Virus record (IMG/VR): IMGVR_UViG_3300035683_000002
Coordinates: 73,117 to 100,689 of that record
Source of the DNA: a virus
Direction: 5' to 3' (one strand)
Length of the DNA: 27,573 nucleotides
In this document: positions 1,618 to 11,689 of the stretch, in pieces
Layout: each line of letters opens with the position of its first letter
How positions within the stretch are numbered: position 1 is the stretch's first letter
Notes under the pieces: generated by a model
What the model was told of the DNA's origin: nothing
What the model saw: only the letters and a program-made list of their open reading frames with translations
Database searches by the model: none
Position numbers and translations under genes: made by a program

Positions 1618-2200
1618 GCAGCATCGCGTAGCGGTCCCGGTCGAGCGCCTGCAGGTCCTCCACCGTCGGCGACTTGGCGCCGAACAGCCCGTCGGTGATC
1701 TCGTTCAGCCGCTCCAGCGCCCGCTCATCCGACGGGTATCGCAGGTGAGGGCGCTCCGCGGTGGTCGCCTCCATGAAGGTCAGGACGCTTTCCGGGATCG
1801 GGATGTCGATCCCGAAGTAGTCGAAGCTGCGGTTCAGCGGCTCGGCCTCGCGCATGACGACTTCATGCATGGCGAGCATGTTCGCCAGGAGCGTCGGCAC
1901 CGCCGCCTCCGCCTCCTGCCGCGTCGGCCAGGGTGAACGCACGGGTGTGCCGAAGCAGTCGGCGACGCCGGCGGGCACGCTCTTCAGCTTCACGTCGCAC
2001 AGCCAGCCGCCGAGCTCCCCGCGATTGATCTCCACGAAGGCGAAGTTCTCCTCGGCGAAGTAGCGCGCCTGCGTTCGCGCGGTCTCGGTGAAGAACTCCG
2101 GATCGCCGGGCCGCATGCGCGCCAGCTCCCGCGCCTTCGGCAGCGAGCGCCGCAGCAGCGCCTCCGCCATCCGCCGGTCAATGCGCGCCTGGCTCGCCAT
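1493..2200 (-). CDS. Hypothetical protein (235 aa), antisense moron-like insertion in the head module
   Basis: Globular amino-acid composition (many F/E/L/W), unlike the shadow ORFs. Minus-strand GGAG lies 7 nt before the ATG, and no credible + strand ORF covers 1620-2250. Confidence 0.8.
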   Translation of the reverse strand: MASQARIDRRMAEALLRRSLPKARELARMRPGDPEFFTETARTQARYFAEENFAFVEINRGELGGWLCDVKLKSVPAGVADCFGTPVRSPWPTRQEAEAAVPTLLANMLAMHEVVMREAEPLNRSFDYFGIDIPIPESVLTFMEATTAERPHLRYPSDERALERLNEITDGLFGAKSPTVEDLQALDRDRYAMLLTVLAMSMLEGFFRFPAWPAEPVGKHPPFEVIPPGGPGRSP

Positions 2201-2258
2201 CCACCGCTCCCTTCCAGCGCGTCATGCGCCGCCTGCCCCCATGCCCCGGAGGCTCCCC

Positions 2259-3440
2259 ATGCAGTTCTTCATCCCGCTCGCCAAGATCGACGAGGAGAAG
2301 CGCCTCGTGATCGGCCGCGCCGTCCAGGAGACGGTCGACCGCGCCAACGAGATCCTCGACTACGCCTCCTCCAAGGCGAACTTCGAGACCTGGTCGAAGA
2401 CCATCGAGGAGGCCTCGGGCGGCCTATCGAAGGGCAACCTGCGGTCCATGCACAACCCCCGCTCCGCGAGCGGGAAGATCGTCGACATCGCTTTCGACGA
2501 CGACGCCCGGGCGATCGACATCGTCGCCAAGGTCGTTGACGACCAGGACTGGAAGAAGGTCGTCGAGGGGGTCTTCACCGGGTTCTCGGTGGGCGGCGGC
2601 TACGGGAGGAAGTGGAAGGACCCGGAGACGGGCGCCACCCGCTACACCGCCAAGCCCTCCGAGATCTCCCTCGTCGACCTGCCCTGCATCCACACCGCGC
2701 GGATCGCGGAGTTGCACAAGGCCGACGGCACCCTCTGCAAGGTCTACCTGAGGGGCCGCCCCCGGACCTTCGCCGAGCTCGCGGAGCTGGAGAAGGCGGC
2801 GCCGCCCGCGCGGCCGCGCACCTTCGCCGAGCTCGCCAAGGGCTGGAACGCCTCCGACCACCCGCGCGAGCACGACGGGAAGTTCGCGAAGAAGACCGGC
2901 GAGAACACCGGCATCGGCGTCGGAGCGGTGCTCGGCGGCGCGGCCGGCGCCGCGGCGGGGATGAGGTGGGGCCCGAGCCTCGGCGAGCGGGCCGGCGAGC
3001 GCCTCGCCGGCGGCGGGGCCAAGGGCATCGTCGGCGGGCTGCAGGGCCGGATGGCCGGTGGGAAGTATGGGCCGGCCGTCCTCGGCGTGGCCGGCCTCGT
3101 CGGCGGCGCGCTGGCGGGCGGTTTCCTCGGGGAGGCGGTTGATCGGCGCGGGCGGAATCGCCGGGCTGACGCCGCCTACCAGGCCAAAGCGCAGTCCGGG
3201 CGGATCACCCCGGAGGAGGCGGCCGAGGCCTCGGGCCTCTACCGCCGCAGCAAGGGCTACGGCCTCGAGCAGCAGCGCGCGAAGGAAGCCGATCGGCCGC
3301 TGGGCATCCGCAGCAAGGCCCAGATGGAAGAGTTCGAGGCCGAGTGGAAGCGCCGCGAGGGGCAGTCCCGCATCGTGGAGGTCGACGGCGAGCGACGTGA
3401 GCGCCGCGGCCCACTTGAGCGCCGCGCGGAGAGCCGCTGA
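2259..3440 (+). CDS. Prohead maturation serine protease (HK97/XkdF-like S78 fold) fused to a C-terminal Gly-zipper extension (393 aa)
   Basis: Start MQFFIPLAK at 2259 with GGAGG at 2248-2252. Catalytic-type motifs GNLRSMH (His), FTGFSVGG (Ser) and EISLVDLP. The protease domain ends near LHKADG and is followed by about 235 extra aa. Confidence 0.88.
   Translation: MQFFIPLAKIDEEKRLVIGRAVQETVDRANEILDYASSKANFETWSKTIEEASGGLSKGNLRSMHNPRSASGKIVDIAFDDDARAIDIVAKVVDDQDWKKVVEGVFTGFSVGGGYGRKWKDPETGATRYTAKPSEISLVDLPCIHTARIAELHKADGTLCKVYLRGRPRTFAELAELEKAAPPARPRTFAELAKGWNASDHPREHDGKFAKKTGENTGIGVGAVLGGAAGAAAGMRWGPSLGERAGERLAGGGAKGIVGGLQGRMAGGKYGPAVLGVAGLVGGALAGGFLGEAVDRRGRNRRADAAYQAKAQSGRITPEEAAEASGLYRRSKGYGLEQQRAKEADRPLGIRSKAQMEEFEAEWKRREGQSRIVEVDGERRERRGPLERRAESR
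2766..2836 (+). repeat. 17-bp direct repeat ACCTTCGCCGAGCTCGC (2766-2782, 2820-2836) within a duplicated RPRTFAELA peptide
   Basis: Seen directly; protein reads RPRTFAELAELEK ... RPRTFAELAK. Confidence 0.85.
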
Positions 3441-6400
3441 TGTCCCGCCCGGTGTTCGACGCCGAGACCATCGGCGAGCTGCGCCAGCGCGTCATGGCGC
3501 ACAACGAGGCCGGCCATGCCCGCACCGGGCTGACCGACCTCAAAAAGATCTTCGCACGGGGCTGGGCAGGCGATGCGCCGAAGACCCGTGCCCTCGGCCA
3601 GGTGGACCGCCACCTGGCGCGCCTAGCGAAGAACACGGGCGATTTCGACGAGACGAAGCACCGCCGCGACGGCGACGGGAAGTTCGCCCCACAGGGCCGC
3701 GCGGCCGCCTTCAGCGACGTGCGCTCCCGCCAGGCCGACCGCCAGCTGCGCGACGAGAACAGCGGCTATGCCGCGTCGCAGACGGGCGTCATCCCCGAGA
3801 CCCGCTTCAGCCAGTTCGGCCCGCTGGCCGGTGCGGTCGCCGGCGTCGCCGCCGGCGCGCTGCGCGGTGCCTTCGACGGCGGCGGCCGGCGCTCCCGCGC
3901 GGTGAACCTCGCGATCGGCCGAGGCGCCGCCCGCGTCGTCGACACCGTCGCCGGTAGAGTCCAAGCGGTCCCCGGCATGGCGGCGGACGCGGCCAATGCC
4001 GGTCTCGCGGCCGCGGCGCGCGGCGTGGCCCGGCGGGCCGGCGAGGCCGATCCGCGCGGCTTCGGGCCGGCGGTCAAGGCCCGGGCGGAGCGCTTCGCGG
4101 CCCGCGCCGAGGCCCGGATCCCGGATGAGGTGGGCAAGGGGCAGCGCACGAAGGCGCGCCGCGCGACCGCCCGCGAGAACCTCGGCCTCGTCACCGGCGA
4201 GGCGCTCGACCTGGCCGACCGCGCCGTCATGGCGGCGCCGCGCTTCGTGTCGCGGCACCTGACGGCGAAAGCCAAGCGCATGGACGCCGCCCTCGCCGCG
4301 CGGGGCGCCTCCGACGCCACCCGCCGCGCGGTGCGCGCGGGCCTCGCGATCAAGCGCCCGCTCGCCGCCGGCGCCGTCGGCGCCGTCGTGCCGGGCGCCC
4401 TCTACGGCATCACGAACATGGAGACGATGACAGTGGCCGGTCCCTACCTGGACGCGCTCCTCCCCCGCCGCGTCGAGAAGGGGACCCGCGCCGAGCTCCT
4501 GACGAAGGTCGCGGCGACGCCGGCGAGCCGCGAGGCGCTGGCGAAGATCTCGATGGCGGGCGTGAGGAGCGCGGCGCTCGCGGTCGGGGGCGCGGTGGCG
4601 CGGATGCCGCGCATGGCGATCGCGAGGATGCCGACGCTGCGGGCGCCGAAGCCGCCCGAGCCGAAGCTCTCGTCTAACCAGGCGCGAGGCCGCGAGCGCG
4701 CGGCGACGATGATGGCGCGCAACCCGAACATCGTCCGCGGTGCGGGCAAGGCCGGGCTGATCGGCGCCGCCGCGGCAGGTGCCGGGGGCCTCGGCGCGGC
4801 GGCGGGCTACGGCGCGCGCGAGTACTACCGCGACGAGAACGGCCAGTTCACCTCGAAGGAGCGCGCGGTCCAGCCGGGGATGCGCGGCGCCCTGCAGAGC
4901 GTGGGCGACTTCATCGCGGACAACCCGGTGGGGGTCGGCGCGGCCGCCGGCCTCGTCGCCGGCGCGCTCGGCGCTCGCTCGGCCATCGCCCGCGGCAATC
5001 GCCGCGTCATCCGCGAGATGGCCGACGGCGTGGCGGAGGGCATGACCCGCCGCCTCGCGGTGGTCGGCCGCTTCGCGAAGGCGGCCGAGGAGGCGAAGAG
5101 CAAGGGGGCGTTCGACAAGGTCAACGCCCGGGTGGAGCGGGCCGGCGACGCCATGCGGGCCGCGCGCGACGCCGGCCCCGAGCGCTGGAACGAGTGGAAC
5201 GTCGACAGCGCGCTGCAGACGCGGGTGCGCGGGATGATCCGCTCGGACGCCTTCTGGAAGGCCGAGCCGGTGAAGGCCAACAAGAGGAAGGCGATGGACG
5301 CGCTGCGCGAGAGCGGCGACATCGATCAGCTGAAGCCGCTGGTGAGCGAGGCCGGCTGGACCCGGATCGAGGCGCTGCGCGGCCAGGCGACGAAGCAGAA
5401 GGCGGCCTACAACGCCACCGTCGCGGGCTTCCGCCAGAAGGCGGCCGACGCGATTGAGGACCACAGGGGCAAGTCCAGCCGCGCGGACGACGCGGCCGAT
5501 GCCGCCGAGGCGATCGAGAAGCGGCTCGCGGAGCTGCGCGAGGCCCCCGCGCCGACCACCGCGGCGAAGAAGATCAAGCTCGTCGACACCGAGACCGCGC
5601 TGAAGGCCGAGCTGAAGACGGCCGAGGCGGCCCGCAAGGCGGCCAACGAGACGCGCGACGAGGCGGCCAAGCTCGCCGACGCCTACAAGCAGGTGCTCGC
5701 GAATCCCGGCAAGCAGGTCGACGGCATCAGCTTCCCGGCCGGCGCCGATCCCTGGAACGTCAAGGCGACGCTGCGGCCGCTGCCGTCGAACGTCGACATG
5801 ACCGACCTGCTCGACAAGATGAAGAGCGATCTGCTGGGCGACCTGCAGGGAAAGATCGCCGGGCGGGTGAAGGCGCGGCAGGACGAGGCGCGCCTCATCG
5901 CCACGGCGACGATCGGCGCGCTGCGCCAGGCCGGCGCCGAGCCGGACGGCATCGCCACCCGGGCGATCAACACCTTCGCCGCCCGCCTCTCCGGCCCGAT
6001 GGCGGCCGCGCGGCGCGACATCCGCGCCGCCGGTGGCGTGGTGAGCCGGGCGGTGGAGCGGAAGCTCGGCAGCGCGCCGGGCGCGGTGTCGGCCTATGTG
6101 GGCGACGCGACCAAGCGGGCGCGCAACCTCGTCTACGGGCCGAAGCCGGAGCCGGACGCCGCGGGCAAGGTGCAGCCACGCGCGGGCATTCTGCCGAAGA
6201 TGGCGCGCGCCGCGGCGGACAACCCCCGCGCGGCGATCCTGACGGGGATCACCGGTGCAACCGGCTCCGGCCTGGTCACCTGGGACTCTGCTGACGGCTC
6301 GCTCGACCTGCAGCTGAAGAGCCCGGCCGACATCTGGCGGCGCCTCTCCTCGCCGAAGACGCGGCCGGCGCCGATCATCCGGCCCTTCCACCTCGGTGAC

Positions 6401-8248
6401 ACCCGTTTCCAGCACACGATCGAGGGCCTCGTCGTCACCAACGACAAGAACCAGCGCGTGCTGCTGACCGGCAAGCGGGTGTTCGCGGATGGGCGCGAGG
6501 AGGAGATCCCGCCGCTCACGCCGCTGAAGGACGCGCTCGACTTCTCGGCGGGGCTGCGCAACCGCCAGGGCGGCGGCGGCGGTGGCGGCGGGCAGGGGGC
6601 CCAGCTCAGCGTCGGCAACGACCAGGACAAGGGCACCTGGTCGGCGGCGCTGGGCCGGCTGCGGAACGCGGGCAAGCTCGCCTCCTACGGCGAGGGCGAC
6701 TGGATCTTCTCGGCGCGGAACGACGGCCAGCACGACAGCCAGGACATCAGCGACGCGGACAAGCTGCAGAACGCGCTGCACGCGCAGGCCGCGGCGAAGG
6801 CGAAGGGCGGCAGCTTCGGCTCCGGCTTCGGCAATCCGGGCGAGTGGCACGCCCAGCTCGCCTCGATCGTCGCCGCGCCGGAGAGCAGCATCCTGACGCT
6901 GAAGCAGCGCCAGCGCCTGCTGCTCGGCTCGCAGACCCAGGCCGGCCTCTTCTCCGGGCAGCTGCGGGGCGACGTGATGAAGGCGACCAGCGGCGCTGAC
7001 ACCGCCCGGGCCTTCATGTCCGAGGTCGGCACCGAGCGGCGCGTGCCCTTCGTCTTCAACAACGACCAGCTCGCGAACATGAAGCGCGCGGTCTTCGCGG
7101 TGAACGAGACCCTCGGCTCCGCGAAGATGAACGACGCCCAGCTGCAGACGGTCTTCGACCGGCTGGAGCGCCACCGCGGCGGCGGCGGCCAGCCCGGTGG
7201 CGGGCAGCGCCCGGCGGGCGGCGGCGGCGGCCAGCCCGCAGGCTCTGGCACACCCGGCCCGGCGAGCGGCGGCGCTCGGGCGGCAGGCGGACCGCCGCGG
7301 GCCTCCAGGCAGAGCGCCGATCCCGCGCCCCGCGATCGGATGTCCTACCTCGCCGACGCGGTCACCTTCCGCGAGACCGCCTGGCCGATCACCCAACGGG
7401 ACAGCAAGCGCTTCCTCGCCATCCCGGTCGGCGTCGAGGTCGAGTTCAACAAGGAAGAGGAGGCGCTGCGCCAGCAGCACCCGACCTGGGACGACGACGC
7501 GATCTGGACCGCGGCCACGCGGCGCATCAACGACCGCAGCAACAACCTCACCTTCGGCAAGGCGACGCAGGCGGGGCTGCTGCGGAAGTTCGACGAGGCG
7601 CGCCACGCCCGCGCGCCGCGCGGTTCCGACCGGGGCGGGGAGTTCTCCTCCCGCGCGGGCGGTGCGGCGGCGAGTGCCGCGGTGATGGCGCGCGGTGCCG
7701 CGCCGGTGCGGCCGCCGGGGCGGGAGAACGACGAGCGCTCCTTCTTCGAGCCGACGCGCCTCGGCGCCACGGTCGGCGGCGTCGCCGGCGGCAACGCGGG
7801 CTGGATGCTCGCCGAGCGCTTCATGCCGGGCCCGCTCCGGCGGCTCGGCACCACTGGGCGCCTCGCCTCCCGCCTCGGCGGCATGGCCTCCCGGCTCGGC
7901 TACAAGCTCAGCGGGTCCATGGCCGGTGGCCTGGCGGGCGAGACGGTCGGCGACGCCGCCGGGGCCGGTGTCTACCGCGCGGCCGGCCGACGGGCGCCAG
8001 CGCCCTATGAGCCGCCGGAGCGCGGCGCGGGCGAGGAGGTGGCGCGCACCGCCGGCTCCTTCGCCGGCCTGGCCGCCGGCACCGCCCTCGGCCGAGGCCG
8101 CGGCCGCGCGAGCGCCTTCGGCATCGGCGTCGGCACCACCCTCGCCGGCGAGGAGCTCGCCGGTGCAGCCCAACGGATCGCCGAGCGCCACTACGGCGCC
8201 GAGCGAGGGGGGCGCGCCCGCGCCGCCCTGAACGGGGGTCGCCAGTGA
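3440..8248 (+). CDS. Giant modular head-region protein (1602 aa): Gly-zippers, coiled coil, poly-Gly-linked domains; putative capsid-packaged polyprotein
   Basis: ATG overlaps the protease stop (TGATG). Long ORF with GC-rich third codon positions. Contains three R-(x)n-G-x-F motifs, about 8 GxxxG hydrophobic segments, an Ala/Lys/Glu coiled coil (~5380-5700) and Gly linkers (~6570, ~7180-7290). No recognisable enzyme motif. Confidence 0.85.
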   Translation: MSRPVFDAETIGELRQRVMAHNEAGHARTGLTDLKKIFARGWAGDAPKTRALGQVDRHLARLAKNTGDFDETKHRRDGDGKFAPQGRAAAFSDVRSRQADRQLRDENSGYAASQTGVIPETRFSQFGPLAGAVAGVAAGALRGAFDGGGRRSRAVNLAIGRGAARVVDTVAGRVQAVPGMAADAANAGLAAAARGVARRAGEADPRGFGPAVKARAERFAARAEARIPDEVGKGQRTKARRATARENLGLVTGEALDLADRAVMAAPRFVSRHLTAKAKRMDAALAARGASDATRRAVRAGLAIKRPLAAGAVGAVVPGALYGITNMETMTVAGPYLDALLPRRVEKGTRAELLTKVAATPASREALAKISMAGVRSAALAVGGAVARMPRMAIARMPTLRAPKPPEPKLSSNQARGRERAATMMARNPNIVRGAGKAGLIGAAAAGAGGLGAAAGYGAREYYRDENGQFTSKERAVQPGMRGALQSVGDFIADNPVGVGAAAGLVAGALGARSAIARGNRRVIREMADGVAEGMTRRLAVVGRFAKAAEEAKSKGAFDKVNARVERAGDAMRAARDAGPERWNEWNVDSALQTRVRGMIRSDAFWKAEPVKANKRKAMDALRESGDIDQLKPLVSEAGWTRIEALRGQATKQKAAYNATVAGFRQKAADAIEDHRGKSSRADDAADAAEAIEKRLAELREAPAPTTAAKKIKLVDTETALKAELKTAEAARKAANETRDEAAKLADAYKQVLANPGKQVDGISFPAGADPWNVKATLRPLPSNVDMTDLLDKMKSDLLGDLQGKIAGRVKARQDEARLIATATIGALRQAGAEPDGIATRAINTFAARLSGPMAAARRDIRAAGGVVSRAVERKLGSAPGAVSAYVGDATKRARNLVYGPKPEPDAAGKVQPRAGILPKMARAAADNPRAAILTGITGATGSGLVTWDSADGSLDLQLKSPADIWRRLSSPKTRPAPIIRPFHLGDTRFQHTIEGLVVTNDKNQRVLLTGKRVFADGREEEIPPLTPLKDALDFSAGLRNRQGGGGGGGGQGAQLSVGNDQDKGTWSAALGRLRNAGKLASYGEGDWIFSARNDGQHDSQDISDADKLQNALHAQAAAKAKGGSFGSGFGNPGEWHAQLASIVAAPESSILTLKQRQRLLLGSQTQAGLFSGQLRGDVMKATSGADTARAFMSEVGTERRVPFVFNNDQLANMKRAVFAVNETLGSAKMNDAQLQTVFDRLERHRGGGGQPGGGQRPAGGGGGQPAGSGTPGPASGGARAAGGPPRASRQSADPAPRDRMSYLADAVTFRETAWPITQRDSKRFLAIPVGVEVEFNKEEEALRQQHPTWDDDAIWTAATRRINDRSNNLTFGKATQAGLLRKFDEARHARAPRGSDRGGEFSSRAGGAAASAAVMARGAAPVRPPGRENDERSFFEPTRLGATVGGVAGGNAGWMLAERFMPGPLRRLGTTGRLASRLGGMASRLGYKLSGSMAGGLAGETVGDAAGAGVYRAAGRRAPAPYEPPERGAGEEVARTAGSFAGLAAGTALGRGRGRASAFGIGVGTTLAGEELAGAAQRIAERHYGAERGGRARAALNGGRQ

Positions 8249-8397
8249 GCGACGCGCCCGCGCCAGCCGCGCCAGCTCCGACGACAGCCGGAGCCTGGAC
8301 GCAATCCACCAATGCCTTCGCGGGGCTGACCGCGACCGACCTCGCGCGCAGGCGCAGGCGAAGACAGCCAAAGCCAACCGAACACGCGTCCACCCCA

Positions 8398-8427
8398 GGG
8401 GGCAGGCCAGAGGCCGGCCCCCTTTTT
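8398..8427 (+). terminator. Rho-independent terminator-like hairpin upstream of the scaffold ATG
   Basis: GGGGGC-A-GGC-CAGAG-GCC-G-GCCCCC followed by TTTTT. Confidence 0.6.
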
Positions 8428-8445
8428 CGTTCCCGGAGACCCCCG

Positions 8446-9843
8446 ATGAGCAAGGCCTACACGGACATCCTCGAGCTGCTCGAGACGAGCGTCGGCGAGA
8501 TCGTCACCAGTGACGCGGAGAACCGCGACGAGCTGCTGAAGACCACCTTCGGCGAGGCCCGCGAGGCGCTCGCCAAGCGCGCGGCCGAGGACCTGCCCGT
8601 GCCGGTCGGCGAGGCCGACGCGCTGACGCTGCTGGCCGACCGCATCGGCGGGCTGGAGGAGGTCGTCGAGGCGATCGAGGGCGAGGCCTGCGGCGAGGGC
8701 GTGGTCGTCTCCGTCGCGGCGGTCGGCCTGGCGAAGCGCTTCCTGGCGCATGGCGGCCTGCTGCTGCGTGCGATCGCCTCCGAGCAGGTGGCGCCGCTCG
8801 AGGAGGGCGAGACCGAGGCCCCCGAGGGCATGAGCCTGCTGAAGTTCGCCTTCGGTGAGGGCGAGGGCGAGGAGATCCTGCTCAAGTCCGCGCTGCCGGA
8901 CGAATACGCCCCGCTGGTCGCGGCGCCCGAGGAGATCGCGGCGATGCTCGCCGAGCTCGGCGCCGACCTCATGGAGGATGCCGGCGTGGATCTCGGCCCG
9001 CTCGCCAAGGCGGCGCGCGAGGAGGACGAAGACGAGGACGGTGAGGGCGACGAAGGCGAAGGCGAGGGCGAAGGCGAGGGTGAAGGCGAGGGCGAGGGCG
9101 GCGATGACGTCGACCTCGACGGCGACGACAGCCCGATGGAGGCAGTCGCCAAGCTCGCCACGATGATCCTCATCCAGGTGGACGCGATCCGCCAGGAGAT
9201 GGGCCCCGACGCCGGCGGCGCGGCGATGGAGGGCGGCGAGGGCGAGGGCGGCGAGGGCGAGGGCCCCGACGAGCTCACCGCGCTCGACGCCATCGCGCAG
9301 CACGCCGCCTTCATCGCGGTGCAGGCCGACGCGCTGGAGAGCGTGCTCAACGACGGCGATCTCGGCGCAATGGAGGGCGAGGGCCAGCAGCAGCAGCAGC
9401 CGCCGCGCGCCCCCGCGCCCACCGGCCGCGCCGGCGAGGGCGAGGATGACGGCGCCGCGGCCGAGGCGGAGGAGAAGAACAAGAAGCCCTTCGGCAAGGG
9501 CGTCGACGCCGGCGAGCTCGCCAAGGCGATCGCGGCGAGCCCCGAGGTGGTGGAGCTGCGCAAGCGCGCCGATCGCGCCGAGGTGGCGGAGCGGGAGATG
9601 GCCGAGATGCGCGAGCGCCTGGCGAAGCTCGAGCGTCAGCCCGTCGATCCGAAGGGCGTTCTCTCCGGCCTCGTCACCCTGACGAAGCAGGCCGAGAACG
9701 GTGGCGAGGGCGAGGGCGAGGCGAAGACCACCGACGAGCTCGCGCAGGACCTCGCGAAGCGCGACCCGCAAGAGGTGGTGCACGCCATGTTCAAAATCGC
9801 AGGGGCCAACCCGATCCCCATGCGCACGACCTGGGGCGGCTGA
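8446..9843 (+). CDS. Acidic capsid scaffolding protein (465 aa); possible in-frame longer form from GTG 8245
   Basis: GGAG RBS at 8435-8438. Extremely Glu/Asp-rich, with a C-terminal coiled coil ending LAKLERQPVDPKG. Lies between the protease and the MCP. By my count 15 of 20 lysines are in an [LVMF]-x-K context. Confidence 0.75.
   Translation: MSKAYTDILELLETSVGEIVTSDAENRDELLKTTFGEAREALAKRAAEDLPVPVGEADALTLLADRIGGLEEVVEAIEGEACGEGVVVSVAAVGLAKRFLAHGGLLLRAIASEQVAPLEEGETEAPEGMSLLKFAFGEGEGEEILLKSALPDEYAPLVAAPEEIAAMLAELGADLMEDAGVDLGPLAKAAREEDEDEDGEGDEGEGEGEGEGEGEGEGGDDVDLDGDDSPMEAVAKLATMILIQVDAIRQEMGPDAGGAAMEGGEGEGGEGEGPDELTALDAIAQHAAFIAVQADALESVLNDGDLGAMEGEGQQQQQPPRAPAPTGRAGEGEDDGAAAEAEEKNKKPFGKGVDAGELAKAIAASPEVVELRKRADRAEVAEREMAEMRERLAKLERQPVDPKGVLSGLVTLTKQAENGGEGEGEAKTTDELAQDLAKRDPQEVVHAMFKIAGANPIPMRTTWGG
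9019..9108 (+). repeat. Degenerate hexamer repeat (GGCGAR/GAYGAR) encoding an (ED)n(GE)n acidic tract
   Basis: Protein reads EEDEDEDGEGDEGEGEGEGEGEGEGEGGDD. Confidence 0.8.
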
Positions 9844-10171
9844 TCCAGGGCATCAGGATCCGCTCGGCCATGGCCCCGTGAGGGGAGCGGCCGAACGGCG
9901 GCGGTCCACCGGAGCCCGAAATCCGGTCCCGATCGAGGGCATCGACACGCTCGAGGAGGCGCGACCGCCGTCCGCTCCCCGCGGAGAGGGCGGCCCCGCC
10001 ACGTCCGGCTGAGCACCGGACCCGCTACCTGACCGCGACGCAGTGGGGGCAACCGAACGCGCAATCCAGCGCGTGCGGCGCCTCGTGCTGCGCGCGGTCC
10101 TGGCCCGTCTAAGCCGTTGGGCCGCGGCGATCTCAGCCCCCCGTCATCTGGGGGGCCGGAACCCCGACCAA
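9844..10171 (+). ncRNA. Candidate structured RNA / cis-regulatory leader of the major capsid gene
   Basis: 328-nt intergenic gap almost filled with helices, e.g. 9895-9906/9963-9971, 9908-9927, 10003-10021, 10031-10043/10088-10099, 10057-10074, 10136-10156. GNRA loops GTGA and GCAA. Not matched to any known family. Confidence 0.4.
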
Positions 10172-11689
10172 ATGAATACCGTGGACGTCAACGCGTCGTT
10201 CGACGCGATCAAGGCTGCGCTGAGCAAGGCGCTGCCGCAGTCCGAGCTGCAGAAGGCCTGGACGCAGAGCCAGAACCCCACCACCGGGCTGACGATGTAC
10301 AGCCTGGAGGCGCCCGCCAAGATGGTGGTGCCGCAGGTCACCCCGTTGAGGAATCGCATCCCGCGCGTGACCGGCGGGCAGGGCATCCAGGCCAACTGGC
10401 GCGCAATCACCGCGCTGTCCACCGCCATGCCGGGCATCGGCGTGAGCGAGGGTCGCCGTGGTGGCCTCGTCGAGGGCGTGGTCACCGAGTACTACGCGAA
10501 GTTCGTGCAGCTCGGCGTCGAGAGCGCCGTGTCGTTCGAGGCGCAGCTCGCGGGCGAGGGCTTCGATGACGTGAAGGCTCGCGCCGTCCAGGGCATGCTG
10601 ATGCACCTGATGATGGGTGAGGAGCAGGTCATCCTCGCGGGTCAGGGCACCTTCGGTCTCGGCGTGACGCCGACGCCGGTGCTGGCCACCTCTGTTTCCG
10701 GTGGTACGCTCGCGGCGGCAACCAACGTCTTCGTGCGCGTCGTCGCCCTCACGCTCGAGGGCTACATGGCGGCGAAGGCCGGCATGGTGCGCGGCTCCGT
10801 GGCGCGGTCCAACGCCGACGGCAGCACCGACAACTACGGCTCGGGCGCGGCGGGCGCGTCGAACTCCGCCACCGTGGCGACGGGCGGCGCGGGTGCGGCG
10901 CACAGCGTGACGGCGTCGGTGACGCCGGTGCGCGGCGCGATGGCCTATGCCTGGTTCGTGGGCTCGGTCGACGGCTCCGCCGGCAACCTCCGCCTGCACG
11001 ACGTGACGACGATCAACTCGACCGTCATCCGTGCGCTGCCGGGCGGCGGCAACCTCGCGCTGCCGGCCGACCTCGTCGGCAACGACCGCTCCGCCAACGG
11101 CCTGGTGCACGATGGCTACATCGGCATCGCGGCGCGCGCGGGCAGCGGCTCGTACTTCCGCCACCTCGACACCGGCGTCGCCGGCGTTGGGTCGCCGCTG
11201 ACGAGCGACGGCGCGGGCGGCATCGTGGAGTTCGACGATGCGCTGCGCTGGTTCTGGGACAACCTGCGCCTCTCGCCGAGCGAGATCTGGGTGTCGAGCG
11301 AGCAGGCGGCGTCCATGCGCAAGCTCATTCTCGCGGCCGGCTCTGCGGCGACGCAGCGCTTCACCTTCGTGTCGGCGCAGGGCGACCTGAAGGGCGGCGG
11401 CAAGGTGCGCGGCTACATCAACGTGTTCGGCATGGGTGCGGCGCCCGAAATCCCGATCGAGAGCCACCCGTACCTGCCGCCGGGCACGGTGCTGTTCCTG
11501 ACGCACCAGCTGCCCTACCCGGTGTCCAACATCGGGCAGACGTCGCGAATTCTTTGCAGGCGCGATTATCACCAGCTGGACTGGCCGCTCCGGACCCGTA
11601 TGCACGAGATGGGTGCATATACCGATCAGGTCCTGCAGCACTACTTCCCGCCCAGCATCGGCGTCATTTCCAACATCGCGAAGGGCTAG
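10172..11689 (+). CDS. Major capsid protein (HK97-like fold, 505 aa) with an inserted beta-rich domain
   Basis: Motifs GLTMYSLEAPAK, PQVTPLRNRIPRV, GVSEGRRG, MGEEQVIL and IPIESHPYLPPGT. Follows the scaffold and precedes a strong terminator. Short propeptide ends LSK...LQK. Ser/Thr/Val/Ala-rich insert at ~10660-11090. Confidence 0.88.
   Translation: MNTVDVNASFDAIKAALSKALPQSELQKAWTQSQNPTTGLTMYSLEAPAKMVVPQVTPLRNRIPRVTGGQGIQANWRAITALSTAMPGIGVSEGRRGGLVEGVVTEYYAKFVQLGVESAVSFEAQLAGEGFDDVKARAVQGMLMHLMMGEEQVILAGQGTFGLGVTPTPVLATSVSGGTLAAATNVFVRVVALTLEGYMAAKAGMVRGSVARSNADGSTDNYGSGAAGASNSATVATGGAGAAHSVTASVTPVRGAMAYAWFVGSVDGSAGNLRLHDVTTINSTVIRALPGGGNLALPADLVGNDRSANGLVHDGYIGIAARAGSGSYFRHLDTGVAGVGSPLTSDGAGGIVEFDDALRWFWDNLRLSPSEIWVSSEQAASMRKLILAAGSAATQRFTFVSAQGDLKGGGKVRGYINVFGMGAAPEIPIESHPYLPPGTVLFLTHQLPYPVSNIGQTSRILCRRDYHQLDWPLRTRMHEMGAYTDQVLQHYFPPSIGVISNIAKG

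Follow-up and report, generated by a model that had tools for sequence, protein, structure and literature searches.

The DNA considered here, referred to as the window, is a stretch of 27,573 nt with a G+C content of 73.6%, which makes up the right end (27.6 kb) of a virus contig of 100,689 bp (IMG/VR record IMGVR_UViG_3300035683_000002, positions 73,117 to 100,689). Its head module, encoded on the + strand, includes an acidic and helical scaffold protein of 465 aa (8446-9843), which gene callers start in this phage at ATG 8446-8448. The scaffold gene is preceded by a 1602-aa 'giant' head-module gene (3440-8248, + strand) and followed by the gene for the major capsid protein (10172-11689, + strand). 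Positions 8245-8445, which look like a gap between the giant gene and the scaffold gene, are very probably coding: the signals in the sequence argue that they are the 5′ part of a scaffold gene with two in-frame starts, which would specify a long form of 532 aa as well as the short form of 465 aa. Near its N-terminus, the long form would carry a short linear motif resembling the N-terminal arm (N-arm) of the capsid protein, and it is this motif, its conservation and its possible role that are discussed below.

The long frame (8245-9843, + strand, 532 aa followed by a stop) begins at a GTG that forms a GTGA with the TGA stop of the giant gene (8246-8248), and a GGGGG lies 6 nt 5′ of this start. 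The sequence-only reading had described a frame opening at this very overlap and continuing through a run of six arginines, a terminator-like hairpin and a second ribosome-binding site into the scaffold; all these elements are present, and the frame is uninterrupted from 8245 to its end at 9843. From its start, the 67-residue extension comprises (all on the + strand) (i) an Ala/Pro-rich leader of 16 residues (8245-8292), the length of which ranges from none to ~30 residues in relatives, (ii) the arm-like motif of 17 residues, AWTQSTNAFAGLTATDL (8293-8343), defined by translation, alignment and profiles, (iii) an alanine and six arginines (8344-8364), a basic run following the motif in nearly all lineages, and (iv) a variable basic linker (8365-8445), which is poorly conserved, predicted to be disordered, always in frame and stop-free. 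Folding of the RNA reveals, within the part that encodes the linker, a GC-rich hairpin (8398-8422) and, directly after it, TTTTT (8423-8427), downstream of which a GGAG Shine-Dalgarno (SD) site (8435-8438) stands 7 nt 5′ of the internal ATG.

The segment of the capsid protein that the motif resembles, AWTQSQNPTTGLTMYSL (10256-10306, + strand), starts directly after Lys-28 (K28), after which the capsid protein is presumed to be cleaved (the LQK site), a presumption for which the invariance of K28 in 27 capsid proteins is the sole backing. The two 17-mers align without gaps and, as had been noticed at the outset, are identical at 10 of 17 residues, with a codon difference at five of the ten; at the nucleotide level they agree at 31 of 51 positions. 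The best ungapped score between the extension and the capsid protein is 54, a value not reached in 3000 shuffles (mean 28.6, standard deviation 4.0, maximum 50). When the arm peptide is compared with the six frames of the window alone, the margin is moderate: the scaffold motif scores 47, the best chance matches 41 and 39. Profiles built from other lineages give a sharper picture in a six-frame search of the 100,689-bp genome. Those made from ten other lineages' scaffold motifs detect two places, the scaffold motif (22.4 bits) and the capsid arm (7.7 bits, E ~1e-3), with -4.5 as the following score. Those made from ten other lineages' capsid arms find the genome's own arm, and the scaffold motif is their sole further match (7.6 bits, E ~1e-3). 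These profile searches thus reveal only two copies of the motif in the whole genome, in the scaffold and in the capsid protein, and the positions conserved in the two families coincide (the aromatic residue, T, Q, G, L, T and the final L).

That the peptide is conserved at the protein level, as had been proposed from the codon differences, is borne out by the relatives, in which it is kept under synonymous codon change: the conserved motif residues use varied synonymous codons across 11 lineages. In one lineage (L041), the scaffold copy shares 17 of 22 residues with its own capsid arm, yet 46 of 66 nucleotides, which points to selection on the peptide rather than to a recent DNA copy. This copy is also longer and closer to its own arm, extending into L-E-x-P-A-x-T-L-Y-P, and the contig ends inside the motif.

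The relatives were reached by a protein search with the capsid protein, after which their contigs were fetched, and loci with a scaffold of the window type were picked among all the fetched loci with a profile of the scaffold core. The sequence-only reading had named a lack of conservation in relatives, beforehand, as the finding that would count decisively against it. This is clearly not what was found, since the motif is upstream, in the same frame and stop-free in all 19 loci with a window-type scaffold core, which represent 14 distinct lineages (capsid identity 48-65%). Five further loci, found by a motif search, have the same layout, although a search that uses the motif as its pattern could not reveal exceptions. 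The layout common to these loci consists of a start at the giant-gene stop, the arm-like motif, a basic run with a variable in-frame linker, and, at the very point where the folded scaffold begins, an internal ATG with an SD site. The giant gene itself occupies the same position in every window-type relative, with its stop at the scaffold start. The motif has the consensus [WF]-T-Q-S-x3-F-x-G-L-T-x-T-D-L in window-type scaffolds. In two of the lineages (L025 and L023, 64-65% capsid identity), the gap encodes G-W-T-Q-S-x3-F-x-G-L-T-A-T-D-L-A-A-R-R-R-R in the scaffold frame, and the extension starts at an ATG or GTG overlapping the giant-gene stop. In four contigs (L026, L028, L030 and P0023), gene callers annotate the long form, with a scaffold start at the giant-gene stop. 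As for the Ala/Pro leader, its length varies to the point that the motif begins at residue 2 or 3 in L028, L030, L033, L111 and L112; in these five lineages and in L026, the aromatic of the motif is among residues 1-4, a position similar to the one it would have at a capsid N-terminus produced by a cut after K28.

Beyond this group, the organisation of the head module differs. In most capsid relatives at ~51% identity or less (L002-L019, L035-L037, L044-L110 and most of L113-L190), one gene immediately 5′ of the capsid gene encodes a protease-scaffold fusion, and neither a giant gene nor an arm-like copy is present. The clade in which a giant gene accompanies a separate acidic scaffold is distinct from them. 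In particular, no second arm copy was found in the IMG/VR relatives at <=47% capsid identity (L002-L019) or in Brevundimonas phages, which have the protease-scaffold fusion. A search of a 5.8-billion-protein collection with residues 1-130 of the long form, a query too short and low in complexity, gave no match at E <= 0.01. The window-type scaffold is also found in prophages, those of Rhodovarius crocodyli CCP-6 (L111) and Falsiroseomonas sp. CW058 (L112). The names of both of these cultured carriers are those of Acetobacteraceae-like genera, which hints at the host range of the window phage, and the capsid family is common as prophages in Alphaproteobacteria, including many loci from metagenome-assembled genomes (L113-L190).

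Several signals suggest how two forms could be made from this gene. The long start is at the giant-gene stop in all lineages, as ATGA, GTGA, TGATG or TAATG, or 2 nt downstream, and an SD site before it is often missing, a combination that is the signature of coupling between termination and reinitiation. Although the extension varies between 47 and 67 aa among lineages, its frame is always kept. A methionine is conserved at the position of the internal start in all 13 lineages analysed and in four of the five added loci (that of the fifth, L198, is two residues upstream). The internal ATG is preceded by an SD site in 11 of 13 lineages; elsewhere in these genes, in-frame positions have one in 19% of cases (binomial 7e-7, with no correction for phylogeny). 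In every lineage, a basic extension precedes a strongly acidic core, and in 13 of 13 lineages G+C at third codon positions (GC3) drops in the extension relative to the core. On reaching the end of the 1602-aa gene, ribosomes would thus restart at GTG 8245, within GTGA, and produce the 532-aa scaffold, while independent initiation at GGAG/ATG 8446 would yield the acidic, folded 465-aa scaffold, probably in larger amounts. The long form would, on these signals, probably be the minor one, in line with the earlier suggestion of a low-abundance long isoform, which gains from the coupling of its start to the giant gene, the conserved SD site at the internal ATG and the consistently lower GC3. Whether the peptide might instead be a separate small gene in relatives had been raised as well; it is always fused in frame to the scaffold, and this candidate was rejected because a stop follows the motif in no lineage.

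A number of observations weigh against such a gene. Codon usage in the extension is atypical, with a GC3 in this phage of 0.73, compared with 0.92-0.95 in the flanking genes and 0.94 in the core, and with the rare arginine codons AGG, AGA and CGA accounting for 6 of 10 arginine codons, versus 14 of 218 in genes. Gene callers choose the short form in this phage and in L025, and the terminator-like hairpin inside the extension could shorten transcripts coming from the giant gene. Finally, the motif is no closer to its own capsid arm than to the arms of other lineages (mean 32.8 versus 32.4, permutation p = 0.44), so that nothing points to co-evolution of a specific contact, and the agreement in W/F between the motif and its own arm, seen in 8 of 11 lineages, is not significant. 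The lower GC3 and the rare arginine codons are, on the other hand, what would be expected if the core were translated much more often than the extension. Concerning the hairpin, the part of the earlier description that stands is a stem (8398-8422) with one mismatch and a T-run ending 8 nt before the internal SD; a simple consensus terminator scan made no call on it, no equivalent of the hairpin and T-run was found in seven relatives, and the linker RNA of relatives folds no better than shuffled sequences (Z-scores from -1.7 to +1.9). The hairpin is thus specific to this phage and lies outside the conserved arrangement, but it may still have a local effect on expression.

Could the extension be something other than a part of the scaffold? 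A chance match, or an untranslated and decaying relic of a duplicated 5′ end of the capsid gene, would suit both the moderate margin over the six-frame background within the window and the unusual codons, but every lineage with a window-type scaffold (48-65% capsid identity) keeps the motif, selection acts at the protein level and the profile matches are reciprocal; we give this next to no chance. It is very unlikely, too, that the frame is a regulatory leader, translated merely for coupling or attenuation, in which ribosomes would melt the 8398-8427 hairpin and control read-through or exposure of the internal SD while the peptide itself is functionless. The strong hairpin and T-run so close to the internal SD in this phage are what such a leader would need, and the linker does have rare codons, but the hairpin and T-run are not conserved and the linkers of relatives show no particular folding. 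Moreover, a pure leader would not keep a 17-residue peptide under synonymous change across lineages and would have no need to stay in frame with the core. Another way of using the same frame would be for ribosomes to shift into the -1 frame as they near the giant-gene stop, giving a giant-scaffold fusion, since every lineage has its scaffold in the -1 frame of the giant gene, and in the window this frame is open for 78 codons 5′ of 8245. This is highly improbable when all lineages keep a start codon precisely at the junction and L033 has only four open codons upstream and no slippery heptamer. Read-through of the giant-gene TGA was rejected as well, for it yields an unrelated 26-residue tail. 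Taken as a whole, a scaffold made in two forms, the longer of which has an arm-mimicking tail, is the likely explanation and the best one available.

What might the tail do? Predicted structures provide some guidance. In the AlphaFold2 model of the long form, residues 1-67 mostly have a predicted local distance difference test (pLDDT) score <50, the first helix beginning with the internal methionine, residue 68. In this model the tail is docked neither on the core nor on the C-terminus, and the chain ends in a short helix-turn-helix (residues 496-521, window 9733-9840, pLDDT about 58-72), which as a predicted element is reminiscent of the coat-binding end of P22-type scaffolds. The capsid protein (505 aa, phrog_13692; P0004) was modelled with a mean pLDDT of 74, and its predicted fold agrees with solved HK97-fold capsid proteins, the top Foldseek matches being the capsids of SU10, Pa223, SPO1 and HK97 (E down to 1.7e-10). 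In the model of the capsid monomer, the N-arm segment is disordered, and a helix is predicted at residues 6-20, upstream of the shared motif.

The tail of the long form would accordingly be a disordered, basic stretch of 67 residues, in which a 17-residue linear motif like the residues after Lys-28 is followed by an arginine run, and this motif would let a minority of scaffold molecules engage whatever receives the tip of the capsid N-arm. Because the arm segment is disordered in the model of the capsid monomer, the partner is probably supplied by the assembled shell. Tentatively, we favour as this partner the site at which, in the procapsid, an adjacent capsid subunit receives the arm, where the long form could act as an anchor or a placeholder. 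A more specific version, which we consider rather unlikely, is that the long-form scaffold plugs the pocket destined for the mature capsid N-terminus until cleaved arms out-compete the tail, which would couple maturation cleavage to scaffold release. The further proposals of the sequence-only reading, that the peptide is located at the portal vertex and that the arginine run binds DNA, are conjecture.

Two other partners deserve to be weighed against the shell. One is the prohead protease, which is encoded separately in the window by the gene at 2088-3440 (+ strand): the N-terminal part of its 450-aa product matches a head maturation protease family, the match being limited to residues 61-212 and the C-terminal ~240 residues being unmatched. 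As a non-cleavable look-alike of the residues that follow the cleavage site, the motif could bind this protease and carry it into the procapsid, a non-covalent link that would replace the covalent protease-scaffold fusion of more distant relatives. The distribution of the motif fits this, as it is in all loci with a protease-free scaffold core and missing from the relatives at <=51% capsid identity that mostly fuse protease and scaffold, and so does a likeness that sets in immediately behind the invariant K28. The mimicry is limited to one half of the site, however, because the L-x-K side is missing from the scaffold copies, some of which begin at residue 2, and the arm motif is equally conserved in the capsid proteins of the fused-protease clade, which fits a structural role in the shell; a protease tether is therefore possible without being likely. 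The other partner would be the scaffold itself, if its own C-terminal helix-turn-helix gripped the arm-like tail in place of the capsid N-arm, resulting in auto-inhibition or in head-to-tail scaffold links that nucleate or terminate the core. Binding of the capsid N-arm by scaffold C-termini is known from phage 80alpha (PMC5644958), the model places a helix-turn-helix at 496-521, and a basic tail would suit an acidic core. In solved systems, though, the scaffold sits on the helix of the N-arm, while here the predicted helix at 6-20 precedes the shared motif, and the AlphaFold2 model of the long form is without tail docking, all of which makes this decoy improbable. Between shell docking, the protease tether and the decoy, the computed results do not discriminate.

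Nested in-frame genes for a long and a short scaffold protein are known in phages lambda (C/Nu3) and Mu (I/Z). In herpesviruses, UL26/UL26.5 are arranged in the same way (PMC11565193). The gene described here resembles them all in that an upstream start would give a rare long form and an internal start the abundant scaffold, an assignment that comes here from sequence signals only. In nested systems, the long and short forms share the scaffold body, by which the extra N-terminal module is carried into the procapsid. There are two differences. In C/Nu3, I/Z and UL26/UL26.5 the module of the long form is the maturation protease domain, whereas here it is a disordered basic tail of 67 residues, for which family searches gave no match, and the protease is a separate gene, which places the scaffold gene outside the nested protease-scaffold class. 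Herpesviruses, furthermore, use separate transcripts, while the signals here are translational (stop/start overlap and internal SD).

Sharing of a short N-terminal sequence by scaffold and capsid protein has a precedent in phage 80alpha, in which the scaffold's copy is essential for assembly, and in which the shared stretch spans the site where the host protease Prp cuts, is likewise matched by ribosomal protein L27 and is lost from scaffold and capsid protein alike (PMC5744158). The similarity with 80alpha stops there, since the likeness here begins after the presumed cut site, the scaffold copies are without the L-x-K side and, the motif being at residue 2 in several lineages, nothing could be removed from the scaffold. 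Many cargo proteins of phage T4, the internal proteins, have an N-terminal capsid targeting sequence that is cut off by gp21. Like this sequence, the motif is a short N-terminal peptide with a presumed targeting or docking role inside the prohead, but the two are unrelated in sequence, and with exactly two copies in a 100-kb genome the motif is not a T4-type targeting tag. In its general features, the system also resembles P22/80alpha-type scaffolds (PMC5644958), with a separate, largely helical and acidic scaffold, a C-terminus predicted to be helix-turn-helix-like and an HK97-fold capsid protein with an N-arm predicted to be flexible on its own. A full-text literature search, which included P22/80alpha-type scaffolds, did not find a scaffold with a copy of the capsid N-arm.

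A few other features of the locus complete this description. Searches of Pfam and PHROGs with the scaffold gave no sequence family match, nor did a family search with the 1602-aa giant protein, and no sigma-70-like promoter was found in a scan of 7600-10400. A non-coding gap of 328 nt (9844-10171) separates the scaffold stop from the capsid ATG; the GTG-started open reading frame from 10043 is a mere upstream extension of the capsid frame, as both the public gene call and PHROG coverage begin at ATG 10172. In two of the relatives, genes resembling GIY-YIG/NUMOD3 homing endonucleases have inserted themselves at different sites in the head-tail connector module (L026:7605-8408 and L030:5608-6483), and these are absent from the window phage.

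In conclusion, a long scaffold isoform with a capsid-like peptide is well supported by its conservation in the sequences of relatives, and a binding role for this peptide is plausible. For a clade of ~100-kb alphaproteobacterial phages and prophages, this would correct the annotation, with an apparent gap of 200 nt becoming coding sequence and the scaffold gene acquiring two starts. It might also offer a handle on open questions in capsid assembly, that is, how a few special scaffold molecules differ from the bulk and how scaffold release and capsid maturation are coordinated, since what would set the special molecules apart here is a motif of 17 residues that copies the capsid arm and can be deleted, swapped or used as bait.

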